The notes: a model not told the origin generated them from the letters alone. 64,000 nt of DNA from an uncultured Thermodesulfobacteriota bacterium (GCA_964510775.1 CAZEBZ010000003.1:424-64423); one strand, 5' to 3'; shown: positions 5,352-40,548, numbered from the stretch's first letter. Numbers and translations: made by a program.

Positions 5352-7352
5352 TTAAGATACACCGAGCTGTCTGTCCTCAAGCTCTCTGATTCTGTCTCTA
5401 AATCCGGCGGCCTTCTCAAAGTCAAGCTTCTTCGCGGCACGGGCCATCTCTTTACGAAGGGCCTTTATAAGGGCTGGTATTTCATGGGGAGGAATATACT
5501 CCTCGGCCTCCTCTGCAGCCACTGGCACGGTGTAATAATCCCCCTCGTATATAGTGGAGAGTATGTCTTTAATACTGCTCTTTATGCTAACAGGGGTGAT
5601 ACCCTCTTTTTGATTATATTTCTCCTGAAGCCCTCTTCTTCTATCTGTCTCATCCATAGCTCGGCGCATGGAGCCTGTAACCCTGTCGCCGTATAGCAGA
5701 ACACGTCCGTTTACATTACGGGCAGCGCGGCCAAAGGTCTGCACAAGAGAGCGCTCGGAGCGTAAAAATCCCTCCTTATCGGCATCAAGTATGGCTACGA
5801 GTGAGACCTCGGGCAGATCAAGGCCCTCTCGGAGCAGATTTATGCCCACGAGCACATCAAACTCGCCCTCTCTGAGGTTACGTATTATCTCCACCCTCTC
5901 AAGGGTATCAATATCAGAGTGCAGGTACTTTACCCTCACGCCAAGCTCGCTGTAGTACTGCGTAAGATCCTCGGCGCTCCTCTTCGTAAGGGTAGTCACA
6001 AGGACACGCTCGCCTTGTTTTACGCGCTCTCTTATCTCACCAAGAAGATCGTCTACCTGATGCGTAGCGGGGCGCACCTCAATGGGCGGGTCAAGTAGAC
6101 CTGTGGGCCTAATTATCTGCTCTACGATATTTTTATCTCCTGCGAGGTCCTTCTCATAATCAGCGGGCGTGGCAGAGACATAGACGCCCTGAACAACCCT
6201 ACCCTCAAACTCATCAAACTTCAGGGGCCTGTTATCAAGGGCAGATGGGAGACGAAAGCCAAAGTCCACGAGGTTCTGCTTACGGGATCTGTCTCCCTTG
6301 TACATGGCCCCAACCTGGGGCACGGTTATGTGAGATTCGTCGGCAAATAGGAGGAAATCATGGGGAAAGTAATCAAGGAGCGTATAGGGCGGCTCACCGG
6401 GAAGGCGGCCTGTAATGTGGCGCGAGTAATTCTCAATACCCGGGCAAAAGCCCATCTCATCAAATAACTCAAGGTCGTAGAGCGTACGCTGCTCAAGACG
6501 CTGGGCCTCTACGTTACTACCCGCCTCCTTGAGCTCACGAAGACGCTCGCCAAGCTCGGCACGTATTGAGTTAACGGCCCTCTTCAGGTTATCCTCTGTA
6601 GTAACAAAGTGAGAAGCAGGGTGAACGAGTACCTTGCTGATACTCCTTAAGACCCTGCCCCGCATGGTGTCTATCTCGGAAATCTCCTCAATAGTATCGC
6701 CGAAGAACTCAAGCCTCAGCGCCGAGGCCGTCTCATATACAGGAAATATATCCACCACATCGCCGCGTACACGAAAGGTGCCGCGGTGAAAATCAAAGTC
6801 ATTTCTCTTATAACGCATGGCCACAAGGCGTTTTAGCACCTCGTCCCTATCAACGGTCATGTCTTTTTCCACATAGAGCTTTATCGTGCCGTAGGCATCA
6901 GGCGAGCCGATGCCGTATATGCACGAGACTGAGGCCACTATTATTACATCACGCCTTGTAAGGAGGGAGTGAGTGGCGCTGTGGCGGAGTTTGTCTATCT
7001 CGTCATTTATGGAGGCGTCTTTCTCTATATATACATCTGATGCGGGCAGATAGGCCTCGGGCTGGTAGTAGTCGTAGTATGAGACAAAGTACTCTACGGC
7101 GTTCTCAGGGAAGAGATCTCGAAACTCGGCGTAGAGCTGCGCCGCAAGCGTCTTGTTGGGTGCGATGATAAGTGATGGCCTCTGAAGCTCTTCTATGACC
7201 TTTGCAACGGTAAAGGTCTTTCCAGAGCCTGTTACGCCAAGAAGCACCTGCGCGCCCTCGCCTCTCTTTATGGCGGAGCAGAGTTTTTTAATTGCAGCGG
7301 GCTGATCTCCGCGCGGAGTAAACTCAGAATCTATCTTAAATACACCTTTCAT
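5352..7352 (-). CDS. uvrB: Excinuclease ABC subunit B
   Basis: 666 aa. Starts [24 protein letters not shown], has a Walker A motif GVTGSGKTF, helicase motifs, and the C-terminal UvrB/UvrC-interaction motif [14 protein letters not shown]. Confidence 0.97.
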
Positions 7353-17714: not shown

Positions 17715-18377
17715 TCAGCCCCCTGCTGTTTTTTTCACTCTTTTATAGACAAAAGGCACAAGGGAGACGAGTAGAACAAGGAGAATACCTATAATAAATG
17801 CAGGGGAGACGCGGCCGTGGAATATATCCAGTATGGAGCTGGAAAAAACCACATAGGCCGTAATACCGGGAAGCATAAAGATAAGGGTAGCGAGGAAATA
17901 AGGAGCGAGGCCTATCTTAGTAAGGCCAAAGGCGTAGTTAAGAAAGTTAAATGGAAATAAAGGGATAAGCCTCGTAAAGGCCACAATCTTCCAGCCCTTT
18001 TTCTCTACGGACTCGTCTATCTCCCTCATACGGCCGCCCTTTACAAGGCCCTCTACCCACTCGCGCCCCATCTTTCTCGCGATAATAAAGGCAAGTGTAG
18101 CGCCTGTGGTAGCGCCGACGGCCACATAAACAACACCCCAAAAGGGCCCAAAAAGCACGCCGCCAACTACGGTAATGGGCAGCCCCGGAAGCATGAGACT
18201 CGGCGCGAGGGCATAAAATAGCATATAGACCACAGGGCCCCATACCCCAAAACCGCCTATCCACCCTCGCATTACGTCCTGGTCAAGGTATCTTCCAAGG
18301 CCGAGGTATCTTACGAGAAAAAAAGCGCCGCCTATAAAAAGCAGTAAGATTACGAATTTTATTGTTTTCTTATTCAT
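17715..18377 (-). CDS. DedA / TVP38-TMEM64 family membrane protein
   Basis: 220 aa with multiple TM helices and the family core motifs LMLPGLPITVVGGVLFGPFWGVVYV and FTRLIPLFPFNFLNYAFGLT. Confidence 0.8.
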   Translation of the reverse strand: MNKKTIKFVILLLFIGGAFFLVRYLGLGRYLDQDVMRGWIGGFGVWGPVVYMLFYALAPSLMLPGLPITVVGGVLFGPFWGVVYVAVGATTGATLAFIIARKMGREWVEGLVKGGRMREIDESVEKKGWKIVAFTRLIPLFPFNFLNYAFGLTKIGLAPYFLATLIFMLPGITAYVVFSSSILDIFHGRVSPAFIIGILLVLLVSLVPFVYKRVKKTAGG

Positions 18378-18384
18378 GGCATTT

Positions 18385-18935
18385 TTTCCAAAGTTGCGAA
18401 GGAGGCGTAAAAGACCTTAAAGGTTTGGAAGTTACCACCCCCCTCCCCACACCATTGGTTTTCTTTGTCCATTTTTTTTGGTGGGCAGTGCCCACCCTAC
18501 AAGTATCTCTAAGTTTTTAAATAATCAGCATAGAACCCCGCCGATGTTGGTTGTGCTTACTGCATAGCGAGCAAAAAACCTTTTTCCAAAGCCACGAGGG
18601 ACGCCTGAAACACTTTAAAGGTTTGGAAGTTACCCCGCCTCCCCCCATTGGTTTTCTTTGCCCATACTCTCTTAGCGACCGTCCTGCATATGACCTGCGC
18701 TATATCCCCCAGGGACATAGAAAAAATGCAAAATAAATAAAAAACTTTTTTCCGAGGCTATGCGGGGCGTACCGACACCTTAAATGCTCTAAGTTCTTTC
18801 CGGCCAATTGGTTTTCTTTGTCCTACTTTCTTTTTTCCGAGGCTATGCGGGGCGTACCGGCACCTTAAATGCTCTAAGTTCTTTCCCCCTTTGGTTTTCT
18901 TTGCCCAGCTTTCTTTTTTCCAAAAGAAAGTTTTT
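18385..18935. repeat. Cluster of four ~85-90 bp direct repeats (two near-identical pairs) of an intergenic repeat family with core ATTGGTTTTCTTTG and adjacent hairpins
   Basis: Units lie at about 18390-18475 and 18580-18665 (TTTTTCCAAAG...CCTTAAAGGTTTGGAAGTTACC...CCCCATTGGTTTTCTTTGYCCAT) and at about 18745-18830 and 18830-18912 (TTTTTTCCGAGGCTATGCGGGGCGTACCGRCACCTTAAATGCTCTAAGTTCTTTCC...TTGGTTTTCTTTG). The embedded hairpins are GGTGGGCAGTGCCCACC and CTTTCTTTTTTCCAAAAGAAAG. The same core recurs at 21483-21735 and 40100-40530. Confidence 0.8.
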
Positions 18936-19013
18936 TATCTCTTGCGCCGTGCCCTGCGCCTTCAACCCGCCTTTATCTCCAAGTGAAGAGAGTATTTTAA
19001 TGCCGGCTCTTGT

Positions 19014-20444
19014 CTACTTACCCCTTCTGATAAGCCAGCGTGAGACCGTTGGAAACCACCCTGAGAAGAGTTTCTCCGTATAATAGGCGTCGCAGGCGCG
19101 TTTTAGCCCCTGCGCCACAGTGGGGTAGACGTGAATCGTCCCTGAAATGGCCGTTATGGGGAGCTTTGCCTTCATGGCAAGCACGTACTCGTGTATTAGC
19201 TCGCCTGCTCCGGGGCCAAGAATATGAGCGCCCAGTATCTGCTTTTTCTTGCTCACAACTATCTTTATAAGGCCCTTACCCTCGCCCTCAAGAAGGGCCC
19301 TGTCCACCTCGGCAAAGGGCACACGAAAGACAGAGACCTTATCGAACTTGGCGCGGGCCTCGGCCTCTGTAAGGCCAACTCTCGCAAGCTCAGGGTCGGC
19401 AAAGGTCACCCAGGGAGTTACCCTGTAATCGGCCCTTCTCTTTATAACAGGAAATAGGGCGTTTGATACGACAAGGCCCGCCTGATACTCGGCCATGTGC
19501 GTAAACTTAAATGGCCCCGTTACGTCTCCGGCGGCGTAGATATGACCCTGCGTGGTCTTCATTGAGAGGTCGGACTTTATACCCCTTCGTTTATCATACT
19601 CAATGCCTGCGTTAGAAAGGTCAAGGCCCTCTACATTAGGAGACCTGCCGATTGCGGACATTATCTCCTCAGCCTCATAGACCTTATCTCCATCAGAGCG
19701 GGCCGCGAGCACTCTCTTACCCCTCTCACTTCGCCCTATCTCCTTAAACTCCTTGCACGTCTCTATCTTTATACCCTCTTCTACAAGAAGGGCATGAAGG
19801 GCGGCGGAGAGCTCTTTATCTTCTCGAGGCAGTATCTGCCCTTTTTTCTCAAGTATGGTAACTTCCGCGCCAAGACGGCTGAAGATCTGGGCGAACTCTA
19901 TGCCTATGGGGCCGCCGCCGAGGATAATAATGCTTGAGGGCAGACTCGTAAGGCCAAGGGCCGTAATATTAGTAAGCGCACCGACTTCTTTTAGTCCGGG
20001 TATAGGTAAGATAGCGGGGCTTGAGCCCGAGGCTATAAGAAACTTTCTTCCAAGAAGCCTCTGCCCCTCTACGTTAAATACATGGTCGTCCTCAAAGGCG
20101 CCGCTGCCAAAGATTACATCTACACCCATCTTTCTGAAACGCTCAGGGTCGTCGTTACAGGAGATCTTTGACTGCACAGCCTTCATAGAGGCCATAACTT
20201 CTGCAAAATCCACGGTAACAGGGCCGCACTTTACGCCAAACTCCCCGGCGCGCCGTGCTATCATGGCTACCTTAGCAGAGTGAACGAGCCTCTTTGTAGG
20301 CACGCAGCCCCAGTGCAGGCAATCGCCGCCAAGGGAGGCCGTCTTCTCCACAAGGGCAACTCGCGCGCCGAGCTGCGCGGCGCCGCTTGCCGTAACAAGG
20401 CCCCCAACACCGCCGCCGATTATTATAAGATCGTATTTTTTCAT
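19014..20444 (-). CDS. FAD-dependent pyridine nucleotide-disulfide oxidoreductase (dihydrolipoyl dehydrogenase / mercuric reductase-like class I family)
   Basis: The start is placed at MKKYDLIIIGGGVGG. It has a redox-active disulfide GGDCLHWGCVP, a second NAD Rossmann motif, and a C-terminal dimerisation domain with the HxxxxE region (HVYPTVAQGLKRAC). No HMA domain is present. Confidence 0.85.
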   Translation of the reverse strand: MKKYDLIIIGGGVGGLVTASGAAQLGARVALVEKTASLGGDCLHWGCVPTKRLVHSAKVAMIARRAGEFGVKCGPVTVDFAEVMASMKAVQSKISCNDDPERFRKMGVDVIFGSGAFEDDHVFNVEGQRLLGRKFLIASGSSPAILPIPGLKEVGALTNITALGLTSLPSSIIILGGGPIGIEFAQIFSRLGAEVTILEKKGQILPREDKELSAALHALLVEEGIKIETCKEFKEIGRSERGKRVLAARSDGDKVYEAEEIMSAIGRSPNVEGLDLSNAGIEYDKRRGIKSDLSMKTTQGHIYAAGDVTGPFKFTHMAEYQAGLVVSNALFPVIKRRADYRVTPWVTFADPELARVGLTEAEARAKFDKVSVFRVPFAEVDRALLEGEGKGLIKIVVSKKKQILGAHILGPGAGELIHEYVLAMKAKLPITAISGTIHVYPTVAQGLKRACDAYYTEKLFSGWFPTVSRWLIRRGK

Positions 20445-20560
20445 GACTATCTGCTGTCCCTGTCCTGCATTAACTCCCATGTCTCATCTTTACTCTATAT
20501 GTAATATAACACCAGCGCATATATCCGTAAGTATGATGGCTTACATAAGCCGCCTCATAA

Positions 20561-21466
20561 TTAAATAGTCTTGGCGGACTCCATAAAATCCTTTACAGTT
20601 GAGAGGGCGGGGATACCGGCCCTGCCCCCTAAAGCAATGCATTTTAACGCGGCAAAGGCCGAGGCGAACCTTACAACCTCCTCCATAGGCCACTTTTGCA
20701 ACAGACCAAAGATATACCCGCCGTGAAAGACATCCCCAGCGCCTGTAGTATCAACGGCCTTAACCATAAAGGCCGGGGTAGTAAAGACCCTGCCCCCATC
20801 TTCGCCCACCCACGTCACAGAGCCTCTATCTCCAAGGGTTACGGTAACGGCCTTCGCGCCAGACTCGGCTATTTTTTTTACGGCCTCCTCGGGGTCGGCA
20901 TGAAAATAATTGGAAAAGACCTCAGAGCCTACGATATAGTCCGCCTTTGGCAGCAGCCTCAAGAGGCCCTCTCTCGGCGAGCCGGCATCGAGAACAACGG
21001 GCAGCCCCGCCTCTACGGCAACGTCGGCTATCCTTATCGAGGCCTCCTCCATAAGGCCGTCAAGAAGCAGGCAATCCGTACCCCTTAGCCACTCCCTCTT
21101 AACCTCAGCAGCGCCAAGCTCCGCTCCCGTCGGCCTCTTCCATAGAATAGTCCGCGAAGCGCTCACTGAGTTAACAATAATAAAGGCCAGCTGCGAGACT
21201 CCGCCCTCCCTTACAGCGAGGGCCTCTATATCAACACCCTCATCTATCAGGCCTTGCCTAATCTTGCCGCCTGCATCATCATCATAGACTACACCCCCAA
21301 AGGCCGTCTCTACTCCAAGCCTTGATAAAGAGACAAGGGCCGTTGCCACAGGGCCGCCGCCCTGCTCTGTAAACTCAAGAACCTCTTTTTTCAGATCCTC
21401 CGCAGGAAAACCATCTACCAAAGCGATAAAATCAAAGGAGGCCTGACCAAGACCGAATACTCTCAT
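20561..21466 (-). CDS. PfkB-family carbohydrate kinase (ribokinase-like)
   Basis: The start is taken at MRVFGLGQASFDF. The N-terminal 23 codons of the track ORF are translated from the intergenic repeat. It has a C-terminal DTTGAGDVFHGGYIFGLL anion-hole / catalytic-Asp motif. Confidence 0.85.
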   Translation of the reverse strand: MRVFGLGQASFDFIALVDGFPAEDLKKEVLEFTEQGGGPVATALVSLSRLGVETAFGGVVYDDDAGGKIRQGLIDEGVDIEALAVREGGVSQLAFIIVNSVSASRTILWKRPTGAELGAAEVKREWLRGTDCLLLDGLMEEASIRIADVAVEAGLPVVLDAGSPREGLLRLLPKADYIVGSEVFSNYFHADPEEAVKKIAESGAKAVTVTLGDRGSVTWVGEDGGRVFTTPAFMVKAVDTTGAGDVFHGGYIFGLLQKWPMEEVVRFASAFAALKCIALGGRAGIPALSTVKDFMESAKTI

Positions 21467-21482
21467 AAATTTCAAACCCCCC

Positions 21483-21735
21483 TTACTTTCTTTTAGAAAA
21501 AAGAAAGTAAGACAAAGAAAACCAACGGGGAACACAACGCCGCACTATAAAAAAAAACCTAACTTGCCCCACGAAACTTTCCTGAAAACAAGTGAGACAA
21601 AGACCCCCCTGCTTTCTTTTGGAAAAAAGAAAGCAGGGTAAAGAAAACCAATTATCTATACAAGCTTTTATCTCAAAAACACAGCCTTGCTCTAATCAAC
21701 AAAAAGAAAGCAGGACAAAGAAAACCATACACAGG
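21483..21735. repeat. Second locus of the same intergenic repeat family (three cores in reverse orientation)
   Basis: CTTTCTTTTAGAAAAAAGAAAGTAAGACAAAGAAAACCAA (21483-21525), GCTTTCTTTTGGAAAAAAGAAAGCAGGGTAAAGAAAACCAAT (21610-21652) and AAAAAGAAAGCAGGACAAAGAAAACCAT (21702-21729) are the reverse complement of TTGGTTTTCTTTGTC...CTTTCTTTTTTCYAAAAGAAAG. This locus lies between pfkB and dtd, which are both on the - strand. Confidence 0.8.
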
Positions 21736-21795
21736 GACAAAAACGAAAGTTAATTAGCGAGCAATTAAAAAAACCTCGAGCCGCAGAAAACAAAA

Positions 21796-27392: not shown

Positions 27393-28859
27393 ATGATAAA
27401 GACCATTCTTCTCGCTGACGACAGCATCACCATGCAGAAGGTCATAAGGCTTACCTTTGCCTCCGGTGGTTACGAGCTATGCTGCGCAGACAACGGTGAT
27501 GAGGCGCTTAAAAAAGCCGAGGATCTAAAGCCGCACATTGTCCTTGTAGATGCCGCACTGCCGGGAAAAAACGGTTATGAGGTCTGCCGAGGCATAAAAG
27601 ACAATCCAAGGCTAAAAAATACCCCTGTCATTATACTTGCCGGAACCTTCAACCCCCTTGACGATGATAAAGCAACAAAGGCAGCGTGCGACGACTCCAT
27701 CGTAAAACCCTTTGAGTCAAGACAGCTTGTAGAAAAAGTAGAGAACCTCTTACGAAAATATCCTGCATCTGAGGCAACCCCTGCTGAGGAGGCGATTACG
27801 GGCGAGACTACGGGCTGGGCCGAGGACGATGTCATAAGAGCGCCTGAACCCTCACCCCTTGCAGGTGTCTCTTCCCTATCCTTTACTGAAGAGACCGTAA
27901 AGAGAGAGAATGTTCCTGACCTTGAGGTACTTGAAGGCCGCGGCAGTATAGAAAAACCTGACGAAGGCATAACTTCTGAGCAAAATGAGGAGGCAGAGAG
28001 CGCACCGCCAAAAATGGAGACAGCCCCTGGAGAATTAGAGGGAGAGGGGGGCTTTGACATAGAGGGCTTTGAGATTAATCCCTTTAAATCCGAGGCGTTA
28101 CGAGATACTGCCCCCATTGAGGAAAGAGGCAAAGGCATTAATGCCTGGAATGTTGAAGAGAAGGACCTCATAACCTTTGAGGACGGAGAGAGTGAGCTTG
28201 AGATAGAGACAGAGTCATACGCGGGCGCTGCGGCAGAGGATGAAGTATTAATTGATGAACCCATTAAAGCAGATGAAGGGCCCGCAGAGGACGTAATCGA
28301 GGCAGAAGAAGAGGGCGTCACTAAGGAGTCTACAGAGACTTTAGAGGGCGAGGCTCCTGCTGAGAGTAGTAATATAGCAGATGAGGCATGGATCTGTGAG
28401 ATTGTAAAGAAGATAAGCCTTGAGATAATGGAAGGGGCGGTGCGTGAAAAAGCCCCCGAGCTTGTACAAGAGGCCGTAGATGAGGCGGTGCGTGAAAAGG
28501 CGCCCGAGCTTGTAAAAGAGGCTGTAGAAGGAATAGCGAGAGAAAAAGCCCCCGAGCTTGTACAAGAGGCCGTAGATGAGGCCGTGCGTGAAAAGGCGCC
28601 CGAGCTTGTAAAAGAGGCTGTAGCAGAGATAGCGAGAGAAAAAGCCCCCGAGCTTGTACAAGAAGCCGTAGCTGAGGCCGTGCGTGAAAGAGCGCCGGAG
28701 CTTGTAAAAGAAGCCGTAGCAGAGATAGCGAGAGAAAAAGCCCCCGAGCTTGTAAAAGAGGCCGTAGAAGGGATAGCGAGAGAAAAAGCCCCTGAGCTCA
28801 TAAAAGAGGCCGTAGAAGAAGAGATGGAGAAAATCAAGGAGGCCATAAGAGGATTATAG
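27393..28859 (+). CDS. CheY-like response regulator with an acidic linker and a C-terminal array of 16-residue repeats
   Basis: Receiver domain MIKTILLADDSITMQKVIRLTF...VLVDAALPGKNGYEV...K. An E/D-rich low-complexity region follows, then roughly 8 repeats of the REKAPELVKEAVEGIA / REKAPELVQEAVDEAV type. Confidence 0.8.
   Translation: MIKTILLADDSITMQKVIRLTFASGGYELCCADNGDEALKKAEDLKPHIVLVDAALPGKNGYEVCRGIKDNPRLKNTPVIILAGTFNPLDDDKATKAACDDSIVKPFESRQLVEKVENLLRKYPASEATPAEEAITGETTGWAEDDVIRAPEPSPLAGVSSLSFTEETVKRENVPDLEVLEGRGSIEKPDEGITSEQNEEAESAPPKMETAPGELEGEGGFDIEGFEINPFKSEALRDTAPIEERGKGINAWNVEEKDLITFEDGESELEIETESYAGAAAEDEVLIDEPIKADEGPAEDVIEAEEEGVTKESTETLEGEAPAESSNIADEAWICEIVKKISLEIMEGAVREKAPELVQEAVDEAVREKAPELVKEAVEGIAREKAPELVQEAVDEAVREKAPELVKEAVAEIAREKAPELVQEAVAEAVRERAPELVKEAVAEIAREKAPELVKEAVEGIAREKAPELIKEAVEEEMEKIKEAIRGL
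28441..28824 (+). repeat. Eight in-frame tandem 48-bp repeats (alternating two variants) inside the response-regulator gene
   Basis: GTGCGTGAAAAAGCCCCCGAGCTTGTACAAGAGGCCGTAGATGAGGCG alternates with GCGAGAGAAAAAGCCCCCGAGCTTGTAAAAGAGGCTGTAGAAGGAATA, with point variants. The array causes the long antisense ORF 27575..28846. Confidence 0.9.
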
Positions 28860-40042: not shown

Positions 40043-40099
40043 AGACAGCTCCCTTATCTTAGCGGGAGATTTTACAAGACCTTAGATGTAACAATCATC

Positions 40100-40530
40100 G
40101 CTCCCCATTGGTTTTATTAACCCCGCTTTTTTTCGATAGGGTGAGAGAAAGACCGCTGCGAGCTTGGTCTTCTTATACATTGGTTTTCTTTACCCCCCTT
40201 TCTTTTTTCCAGTGGGGCGATGATGAAGTTTTGTAGCGATAAAATATCAACACCATATTGGTTTTCTTTACCCCGCTTTCTTTTTTCTAAAAGAAAGCGG
40301 GAGGTTTTCTTTGTCTTACTTTTTTGTAAATGGTTAGAGAAAGACCGCTGCGAGCTTGGACTTGTTATACATTGGTTTTCTTTGCCCCCCTTTCTTTTTT
40401 CTAAAAGAAAGGGGGAGGTTTTCTTTGTCTTACTTTCTTTTTTCCAGTGGGACGAAGATGCAGCTAAAGAGAATATGAGCTAATTGCCCCCCATTGGTTT
40501 TCTTTGTCTTACTTTCTTTTTTCCAAAAGA
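40100..40530. repeat. Third and largest locus of the intergenic repeat family (at least 7 cores, mosaic of longer duplicated blocks, perfect hairpins)
   Basis: ATTGGTTTTCTTT(A/G)CC starts near 40107, 40179, 40255, 40370 and 40491, and GGTTTTCTTTGTCTTAC near 40303 and 40418. The perfect palindromes are CCCGCTTTCTTTTTTCTAAAAGAAAGCGGG and CCCCCTTTCTTTTTTCTAAAAGAAAGGGGG. Duplicated ~80-bp blocks AGAGAAAGACCGCTGCGAGCTTGG.CTT.TTATACATTGGTTTTCTTT lie at 40144 and 40336. Spacing between cores is irregular. Confidence 0.85.
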
Positions 40531-40548
40531 AAGTAAGGAGGCGTGGAT

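Follow-up and report, generated by a model that had tools for sequence, protein, structure and literature searches.

A family of REP/BOX-type intergenic hairpin repeats in uncultured Thermodesulfobacteriota

Results and Discussion

A previously undescribed family of hairpin repeats, which is an example of the REP/BOX-type class of intergenic repeats, was identified by analysis of a 64,000-nucleotide stretch of DNA from an uncultured Thermodesulfobacteriota bacterium (GCA_964510775.1, CAZEBZ010000003.1:424–64423), referred to below as the window. The repeats form a multicopy family, carry a hairpin, are biased towards the ends of genes, have kept their sites across species, build arrays of varying length and evolve in concert. 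They are probably extragenic palindromes of the REP/BIME/BOX kind, whose effect would depend on their orientation. No mention of the motif in this context was found in the literature searched.

Repeat units in the window

The core of the repeat, GGTTTTCTTTR, is present in 14 exact copies in the window (those listed comprise four in locus A, three in locus B and six in locus C, plus a degenerate copy at 40107), and a search of the whole window revealed no copy outside these three intergenic regions; a core repeated at three loci was what the original prediction had described. A pattern search with ATTGGTTTTCTTTG, allowing up to two mismatches, gave 11 matches in the window compared with 0.73 expected, a number equalled in none of 100 shuffled sequences. 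These matches are at 18454, 18647, 18807 and 18890 in locus A (+), at 21513, 21639 and 21716 in locus B (−) and at 40179, 40257, 40371 and 40493 in locus C (+). The hairpin CTTTCTTTT-N4-AAAAGAAAG occurs in six copies (0.00 expected), and the palindrome quoted in the original prediction corresponds to 40272–40301 in locus C.

Two modules, termed S and L, were distinguished among the 246 exact cores found in the window and the 108 related loci listed. The S unit consists of the core and a 14-bp A/T-rich hairpin with a 4-nt loop, in the layout (TTCCCC-N-ATT)-GGTTTTCTTTG-(5-bp variable stem)-CTTTCTTTT-TTCC-AAAAGAAAG-(5-bp variable stem)-GG, with a T-rich tract usually next; the 3′ arm is followed by purines and then by the T-rich stretch. 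The loop is TTCC in 81 units, TTCT in 31 and TTCA in 11. The L unit, of about 85 nt, contains the core, a 5′ half-hairpin and a variable segment of about 55 nt with small conserved islands (GGG, TTCAAWG and CCCC) that leads into the next core. L units are arranged in tandem, 5′ of one terminal S unit, and their periods cluster at 79–90 nt.

A covariance model, built from 51 distinct S units, identified six full S units in the window (starting at 18887, 40254, 40368 and 40490 on the + strand, and at 21603 and 21477 on the − strand), and the partial units that it detected in the window are confined to loci A, B and C. The units and their neighbours are as follows.

Locus A
18378–19013: locus A, intergenic region of 636 nt
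17715–18377 (−): VTT/DedA protein gene, flank of locus A
19014–20480 (−): pyridine-nucleotide disulfide oxidoreductase gene, flank of locus A
18383–18467 (+): L-type unit A1, direct-repeat family D2 plus core match; weak model match, 22.7 bits at 18451–18489
18581–18660 (+): L-type unit A2, 81% identical to A1; core at 18650–18660; model match
18745–18892 (+): two tandem L units, family D3; period 83–85 nt; 98% identity over 57 nt; cores at 18810–18820 and 18893–18903
18887–18939 (+): terminal S unit; covariance model 59.4 bits, E 1e-11; core 18893–18903, hairpin 18909–18930, then TTTTTT

Locus B
21467–21795: locus B, intergenic region of 329 nt
21477–21529 (−): S unit B1; 72.1 bits
21603–21655 (−): S unit B2; 73.7 bits; terminator-like pattern; outer stem CCCTG/CAGGG
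21681–21732 (−): partial unit B3; 22.6 bits; core 21716–21726; 5′ arm alone

Locus C
40043–40548: locus C, intergenic region of 506 nt
40104–40221 (+): degenerate unit (ATTGGTTTTATTAA at 40107) and L-type unit (core at 40182–40192); 12.6 and 29.5 bits; families D2 and D4
40254–40306 (+): S unit C2; 75.2 bits; terminator-like; outer stem CCCCG/CGGGA; second core directly 3′, at 40303–40313
40303–40367 (+): L-type unit, family D4; core, truncated 5′ arm and variable segment; duplicate of 40128–40209 (90% identity)
40368–40420 (+): S unit C3; 74.8 bits; terminator-like; outer stem CCCCC/GGGGG; next core at 40417–40427
40417–40489 (+): L-type unit; 17.3 bits; 79-nt period
40490–40542 (+): terminal S unit C4; 74.4 bits; core 40496–40506; hairpin 40507–40538

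In unit A1 the variable segment ends with CCCCACACCATT, followed by the core (18457–18467), and the hairpin is absent. Locus B is flanked by the genes for a D-Tyr-tRNA deacylase (Dtd) and a PfkB-family kinase (both −), and locus C by those for a thioredoxin-reductase-like protein and a carbamate-kinase-like protein (Pfam AA_kinase; both +). Owing to the strands of these flanking genes, the units are antisense to the genes at locus A and sense at loci B and C. The terminal S unit of locus A is thus antisense to both the VTT/DedA and the oxidoreductase gene, and the orthologous S units at this site are likewise antisense in L085, L029, L191, L192, L193 and L194.

In locus B, the 3′ arm of unit B1 leads into GGGGGG (the Shine-Dalgarno sequence), followed by the ATG of the PfkB-family kinase gene at 21466. 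This start gives a protein of 301 aa, compared with 298 aa in four orthologues; the mechanically called ORF (20561–21535, −) begins at a GTG (21535) inside a repeat unit, so the suspected over-extension of the kinase ORF through a repeat was borne out. Since the gene starts at ATG 21466, locus B is 329 nt long and not the 260 nt originally given, while the lengths stated for loci A (636 nt) and C (506 nt) stand. Orthologous S units lie 5′ of the PfkB gene in six relatives, and a degenerate remnant is present in L190.

In locus C, the 3′ arm of unit C4 overlaps the Shine-Dalgarno sequence GGAGG (40537–40541) of the carbamate-kinase-like gene (ATG 40549), in agreement with the earlier remark that a unit adjoins the arcC ribosome-binding site. 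L058 contains an orthologous L+S array 5′ of the same gene.

The longer duplicated blocks reported at the outset were recovered as blocks of 57 nt (98% identity), 82 nt (90%) and 67 nt (81%), spaced by 83–85, 192 and 198 nt, the 57-nt block at 85-nt spacing. The spacing between the repeat units of the window is irregular (41–198 nt). Tandem Repeats Finder did not call the arrays, as their copies are too few or too diverged. A CRISPR array, already discounted in the original prediction, was rejected: the spacing is irregular, the neighbouring “spacers” are 81–98% identical copies of each other, and no cas domains are present in the flanking genes.

Conservation of the hairpin and of the core

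In the 51 distinct S units, 94.1% of cells of the hairpin are paired. The four outer pairs contain 60 double-change cells compared with 25.4 in shuffles (none of 500 shuffles reached 60), every slid control gave a lower count, and at least 15 compensatory variants of the outer stem were observed. These data support the reality of the S hairpin and its maintenance by compensatory change.

The remaining segments are nearly invariant. Among 158 S units, counted with two mismatches tolerated per segment, the core is exact in 148, the 5′ inner arm in 152 and the 3′ inner arm in 150. So strict a conservation of core and inner stem would not be required of a hairpin with a purely structural role and suggests a sequence-specific partner. 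Mismatches of the G·U and A·C types are balanced in S units (12 vs 13), and thus give no clue to the strand under selection or to whether selection acts on RNA or DNA.

Distribution of the family

Reference genomes (one per species) were scanned with the core plus the 5′ arm as the query, and at least 108 stretches were found. Among the matches listed, all but two of the stretches belong to eight uncultured MAG species of Thermodesulfobacteriota or “Deltaproteobacteria”. The window and the 108 related loci listed (751 kb) contain 246 exact cores and 143–158 S units, compared with no core and no S unit in 474 kb of unrelated metagenome loci. The predicted dispersed, genome-wide family was thus recovered, and confinement of the motif to the three loci, which would have spoken against it, is clearly not what was found.

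The window matches contigs of the JGI metagenome 3300023548. Its best coding identity to the eight MAG species is 66–78%, and it represents a further species. Viral contigs, plasmids and phages gave no matches, although the BLAST low-complexity filter may hide T-rich ones; a phage or plasmid origin was rejected on this result.

The two remaining stretches are assigned to other taxa. One (L102), in the Anaerolineaceae bin CAZMXX010000174.1, contains a pair of CAYOVP-type S units; its tetranucleotide correlation of 0.89 with the co-assembled Thermodesulfobacteriota MAG indicates that this contig is probably mis-binned. The other (L104), from the rumen Ruminococcus/Clostridia MAG RUG14199, carries four copies within 8 kb (3807, 6950, 7373 and 7456, all +), in which the core and inner stem are unchanged. 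Each follows a GC-rich hairpin, and an L-then-S pair is included. The contig, of Firmicutes type and unrelated in composition, has its own RNase Y gene, and no copies are present in about 56 kb from its three nearest relatives (RNase Y 86–91% identical). This lone occurrence outside the phylum, on a single contig, suggests horizontal arrival and hints at horizontal spread of the repeat.

Evolution at orthologous sites

As the first set of orthologous loci had been retrieved via the repeat itself and was therefore biased, loci were retrieved anew through the oxidoreductase protein encoded between loci A and B. A metagenome scan with this protein gave only homologues of at most 51% identity, too distant for comparing occupied with empty sites, and protein clusters were used instead. 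This second set comprised five in-clade orthologues (76–85% aa identity) and two outgroups (65–66%), with conserved gene order around A and B. In all in-clade genomes the elements occupy the same two of about 10 intergenic sites, and the other sites are empty throughout. Orientation is fixed as well, being sense at Dtd|PfkB and antisense at PyrRedox|VTT in every in-clade genome; in L190 both sites retain the core and a degenerate hairpin only. Both outgroups lack the elements, and in them the PyrRedox and VTT genes have an overlap of 4 nt or a gap of 16 nt. Therefore, a single filling event at each site preceded the divergence of the clade, and the elements are old and have been inherited vertically at fixed intergenic sites. 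In the outgroups PyrRedox|VTT is a tight operon junction, and the antisense orientation of the elements at this site is consistent with selection against an orientation that would terminate transcription.

The intergenic flanks of these sites are no longer alignable, while no difference in core, inner stem or loop is seen among the 7–8 genomes with an exact S unit at each site. The outer stem varies between orthologous S units, and the number of L units at one site ranges from 0 to 3 across species. L192 carries one odd variant, with identical flanks, at both sites. The 10-nt 5′ flank of the units is genome- or clade-specific (TTCCCCnATT vs CGCTGrYAYT); flank identity is 0.442 within genomes vs 0.392 between them (reached in 0 of 1000 permutations), a difference to which kinship among the genomes contributes. 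Taken together, the variant pair of L192, the within-genome likeness of flanks and the invariant core indicate concerted evolution. That copies within a genome are more alike than orthologues points to gene conversion, or to replacement from a master copy. The family hence provides a clean natural case of an ancient intergenic repeat, fixed in position and orientation, that is still homogenized within genomes.

Only one gain or loss was observed: in L193, the 5′ untranslated region of a radical-SAM gene contains a block of about 190 nt, composed of a degenerate L unit and an S unit, that is missing from L190 and L192, with no target-site duplication visible at this polymorphic site. The suggestion of frequently moving, MITE-like repeats was not upheld, given the same sites and orientation in all in-clade genomes and this one gain or loss.

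A PfkB gene at the position between Dtd and the oxidoreductase gene is confined to the clade with the repeats. In outgroup L195, a 116-nt gap (6884–7001) is found where it lies in the repeat-bearing clade (20561–21466 in the window). Given this restriction, the gene and its upstream S unit may have arrived in one period.

Gene context and orientation

At least 89% of the cores (218 of 246) are located outside ORFs of 100 aa or more. Among the 110 S units with a classifiable context, 48 are co-directional sense, 33 co-directional antisense, 22 convergent and seven divergent. Thus 94% lie where a gene ends; a co-oriented gene precedes 64%, and 30% run antisense to the genes on both sides.

Long ORFs start 10–20 nt after the hairpin in 19 S units (about 13%), compared with two cases in the antisense control. 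In S units located before a start codon, the 3′ arm reads GTAAGGAGG or similar, and therefore the unit supplies the Shine-Dalgarno sequence, as at the arcC and PfkB genes. A link between orientation and the replication strand was rejected, as loci A and B have opposite orientations 2.5 kb apart.

We favour a model in which the S units would be co-transcribed with neighbouring genes and act through an RNA stem-loop, according to orientation and context. A sense unit followed by a U-tract would act as a terminator or attenuator, and one placed directly before a start codon would provide a 5′ stem-loop plus a Shine-Dalgarno sequence. An antisense unit inside an operon may form a non-terminating intercistronic or 3′ hairpin of the exonuclease-blocking kind. 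The L units are probably tandem duplications produced by slippage or unequal recombination between 30-nt direct repeats, in which case the arrays would behave like variable-number tandem repeats. Conserved antisense orientation at a former operon junction is a prediction of this orientation-dependent model, and the orientation fixed there leads in turn to the prediction that a sense unit terminates transcription and an antisense unit does not. By donating ribosome-binding sites and candidate terminators to its neighbours, the family would be useful for studying how repeats are retained and co-opted.

A simpler reading is that the units are the intrinsic terminators of the organism, single or stacked as insulators, which resemble each other through duplication of a successful design. 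As well as the prevalence of gene 3′ ends around S units, this reading has in its favour that, in 75 of 138 cases (54%), a sense-strand T-tract (at least six T in eight positions) follows the stem-loop within 8 nt, compared with none of 138 on the antisense strand. A terminator-pattern scan matched three of the six S units of the window (21638–21607, 40272–40301 and 40386–40415), where the hairpin is followed by AGGTTTTCTT, and to this extent the resemblance to an intrinsic terminator pointed out earlier, for the hairpin followed by GGTTTTCTTTG, was supported. However, the stem is A/U-rich and the T-tract often begins 3–6 nt past it, which is atypical of a canonical intrinsic terminator, and an invariant 11-nt sequence 5′ of the stem is no terminator requirement. 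Moreover, the T-tract frequency shows only a weak dependence on context (69%, 59% and 48%), the units preceding a start codon would silence the gene if termination were full, and nearly a third of the classifiable units (33 of 110) face the wrong way for either neighbour, including that of locus A in every genome examined. The “stacked terminators” of the original prediction therefore hold as a terminator-like pattern and fail as a full account, and we consider this reading unlikely.

Comparison with known intergenic repeats

Among the options named in the original prediction, a REP-like nature fits best, and this assignment is supported by the comparison with known systems. The S units share with the REP/BIME elements of Escherichia coli, Salmonella and Pseudomonas, and with REPINs, a short, palindromic stem-loop (here 14 bp with a 4-nt loop), high copy number, a dispersed extragenic location, a bias towards gene 3′ ends, the presence of both orientations, composite arrays, stable positions and signs of gene conversion. 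E. coli REP elements stabilize upstream mRNA and can attenuate transcription. The RepRanger paper (PMC12306157) refers to Higgins et al. 1988 in this connection. The S unit differs from REPs in lacking a GTAG or CGTC 5′ tag, its 5′ flank being ATT-GGTTTTCTTTG. Its stem is homopyrimidine/homopurine and A/T-rich, whereas that of REPs is GC-rich, and 5′ of this stem it carries an invariant, single-stranded core of 11 nt.

The same genomes also contain canonical REPs as a second, distinct family, composed of GTAG and the GC-rich palindrome GTAGGGTGGGCACTGCCCACC, of which 31 exact copies were observed in 21 loci; one GTAG-tagged copy lies inside locus A (18480–18500, −). GTAG at the palindrome foot is confined to these separate GC-rich palindromes and is absent from S units. 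At L060 2556–3373 (MAG CAYYJQ), GTAG REPs directly abut S units, forming BIME-like composites. This region includes the following gene:

L060 2699–3241 (+), CAYYJQ010000017.1: RAYT-type Y1 transposase of 180 aa (Pfam Y1_Tnp, 24.1 bits, cutoff 23)

The motifs of this protein are HIH...WQRRFWEH...YIHYNPVKHG. Inverted GTAG-tagged REPs are located on both sides of the gene, and two S units a short distance 5′ of it.

BOX elements of Streptococcus pneumoniae, of the structure boxA-boxB(n)-boxC, are intergenic, are co-transcribed and have no transposase of their own. They resemble the present repeats in a modular build with a variable-number middle module and a fixed terminal module, but their sequence is unrelated and they come from a different phylum. 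Unlike in BOX, the first 30 nt are common to the repeated and the terminal module of the S/L arrays, whose appearance is therefore that of slippage products rather than of an ordered A-B-C series.

Correia/NEMIS elements (Neisseria) and ERIC are intergenic repeats that alter the expression of neighbours via hairpins, processing sites, terminators or parts of promoters and ribosome-binding sites. Apart from the shared intergenic location they differ from S units in size (100–150 bp vs about 50 nt), in terminal inverted repeats and in a TA target duplication, of which none was seen here, and in presence/absence polymorphism, whereas S-unit occupancy is nearly fixed. MITE traits were likewise not observed, as there are no inverted repeats beyond the hairpin and no duplication, and occupancy is identical at about 10 sites in 6–8 genomes.

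These comparisons bear on a DNA-level alternative, in which a sequence-specific protein recognizes the unit: it would either serve as a substrate or end in single-strand (HUH/RAYT-type) transposition, and be an actively propagating parasite of the REPIN or MITE kind, or be bound by a nucleoid or recombination protein. This alternative is retained since the constraint on the core and inner stem exceeds a structural hairpin's need; we nevertheless give it only a small chance. Sequence constraint on the core and inner stem combined with pairing constraint on the outer stem is the pattern of a protein-read hairpin, the mismatches lack an RNA-strand bias, and discrete outer-stem subfamilies are common to several genomes. 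The single gain or loss of an L+S block, the horizontal arrival suggested by the Clostridia contig and the RAYT gene adjoining S units in L060 point in the same direction. However, that gene is flanked by the GTAG-tagged GC-rich REPs and not by inverted S units, which lie on one side only. A motif search of 888 kb of fragmentary DNA gave no RAYT gene flanked by inverted S units, and the window contains no RAYT motif. In addition, site occupancy is almost constant across species in which the flanking protein is 76–85% identical, neither target-site duplications nor terminal inverted repeats other than the hairpin were found, and the viral contigs, plasmids and phages contained no copies.

A related and rather improbable proposal is that a putative sequence-specific ssDNA transposase or RNA-binding protein recognizes the folded S unit and moves or maintains it across phyla. 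If true, this would explain the invariance of the 11-nt core and 9-bp inner stem in both Thermodesulfobacteriota and Clostridia, where the copies occur in one rumen genome and not in its nearest relatives.

RNA structure and further alternatives

The folding energy of single units is about −17 kcal/mol for both strands (z-scores −1.9 and −2.4). Overall, the z-scores are modest (−1.7 to −2.5), and two L units folded no better than shuffled sequences. RNAalifold predicted no consensus pairs for 18 distinct L units, on which basis a structured RNA encoded by L units was rejected. Rfam gave no matches in the window at gathering thresholds, and with permissive thresholds chance-level matches alone (13–26 bits vs thresholds of 45–170).

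The earlier proposal of a family of small structured RNAs was not sustained, given the lack of both an Rfam match and a consensus structure in the 85-nt units. The same results weigh against a role of the units as small RNA genes or cis-regulatory leaders, such as tandem sRNAs with a CU-rich anti-Shine-Dalgarno seed or a thermometer of the fourU type, in which the U-rich core would pair with the Shine-Dalgarno sequence. In the minimum-free-energy fold of the arcC leader the core GUUUUCU does pair with AGGAGGC, S units precede start codons more often than in the antisense control, and arrays of the locus A type face away from both neighbours. Nevertheless, a start codon follows just about 13% of S units and no conserved promoter-like element was found, which makes a leader or sRNA function very unlikely. 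A sigma-54 or sigma-70 promoter inside the unit was rejected, as the spacing does not fit and a consensus scan remained at background.

The least credible reading is an intramolecular pyrimidine-motif triplex in RNA, or H-DNA in duplex DNA, in which the core TTTTCTTT would take the Hoogsteen position on the stem formed by CTTTCTTTT and AAAAGAAAG. In its favour, the core matches the purine arm exactly as a parallel complement (seven U·A-U triplets and one C+·G-C), core and 5′ arm are perfect mirror images over 8 nt with 7 nt between them, and all three segments are invariant, Clostridia copies included. Against it, the covarying outer stem between core and inner stem leaves a 1-nt linker, so that triplex and full hairpin cannot coexist, at least six core or purine-arm variants lack a matching third-strand change, and the mirror match is about a 1-in-8 coincidence given the T-rich composition.

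Effects on annotation and assembly

The arrays create false ORFs (87-aa and 91-aa frames as well as the over-extended PfkB start) and probably break the assemblies of these MAGs. No Pfam match was obtained for the ORFs overlapping the arrays of locus A (18808–19083) and locus C (40220–40483, +). The latter corresponds to L001 2396–2656, an 86-aa gene in the public JGI annotation that consists of repeat units throughout, and the gene call at 40220–40483 is almost certainly spurious. The oxidoreductase ORF (19014–20480, −) also starts too early, with 488 aa compared with 476 aa in orthologues.

Another repeat was called by Tandem Repeats Finder at 28431–28819 of the window, with about eight copies of a 48-nt (or four of a 96-nt) unit at 78–89% identity; it is unrelated to the hairpin family and possibly located within a coding region.
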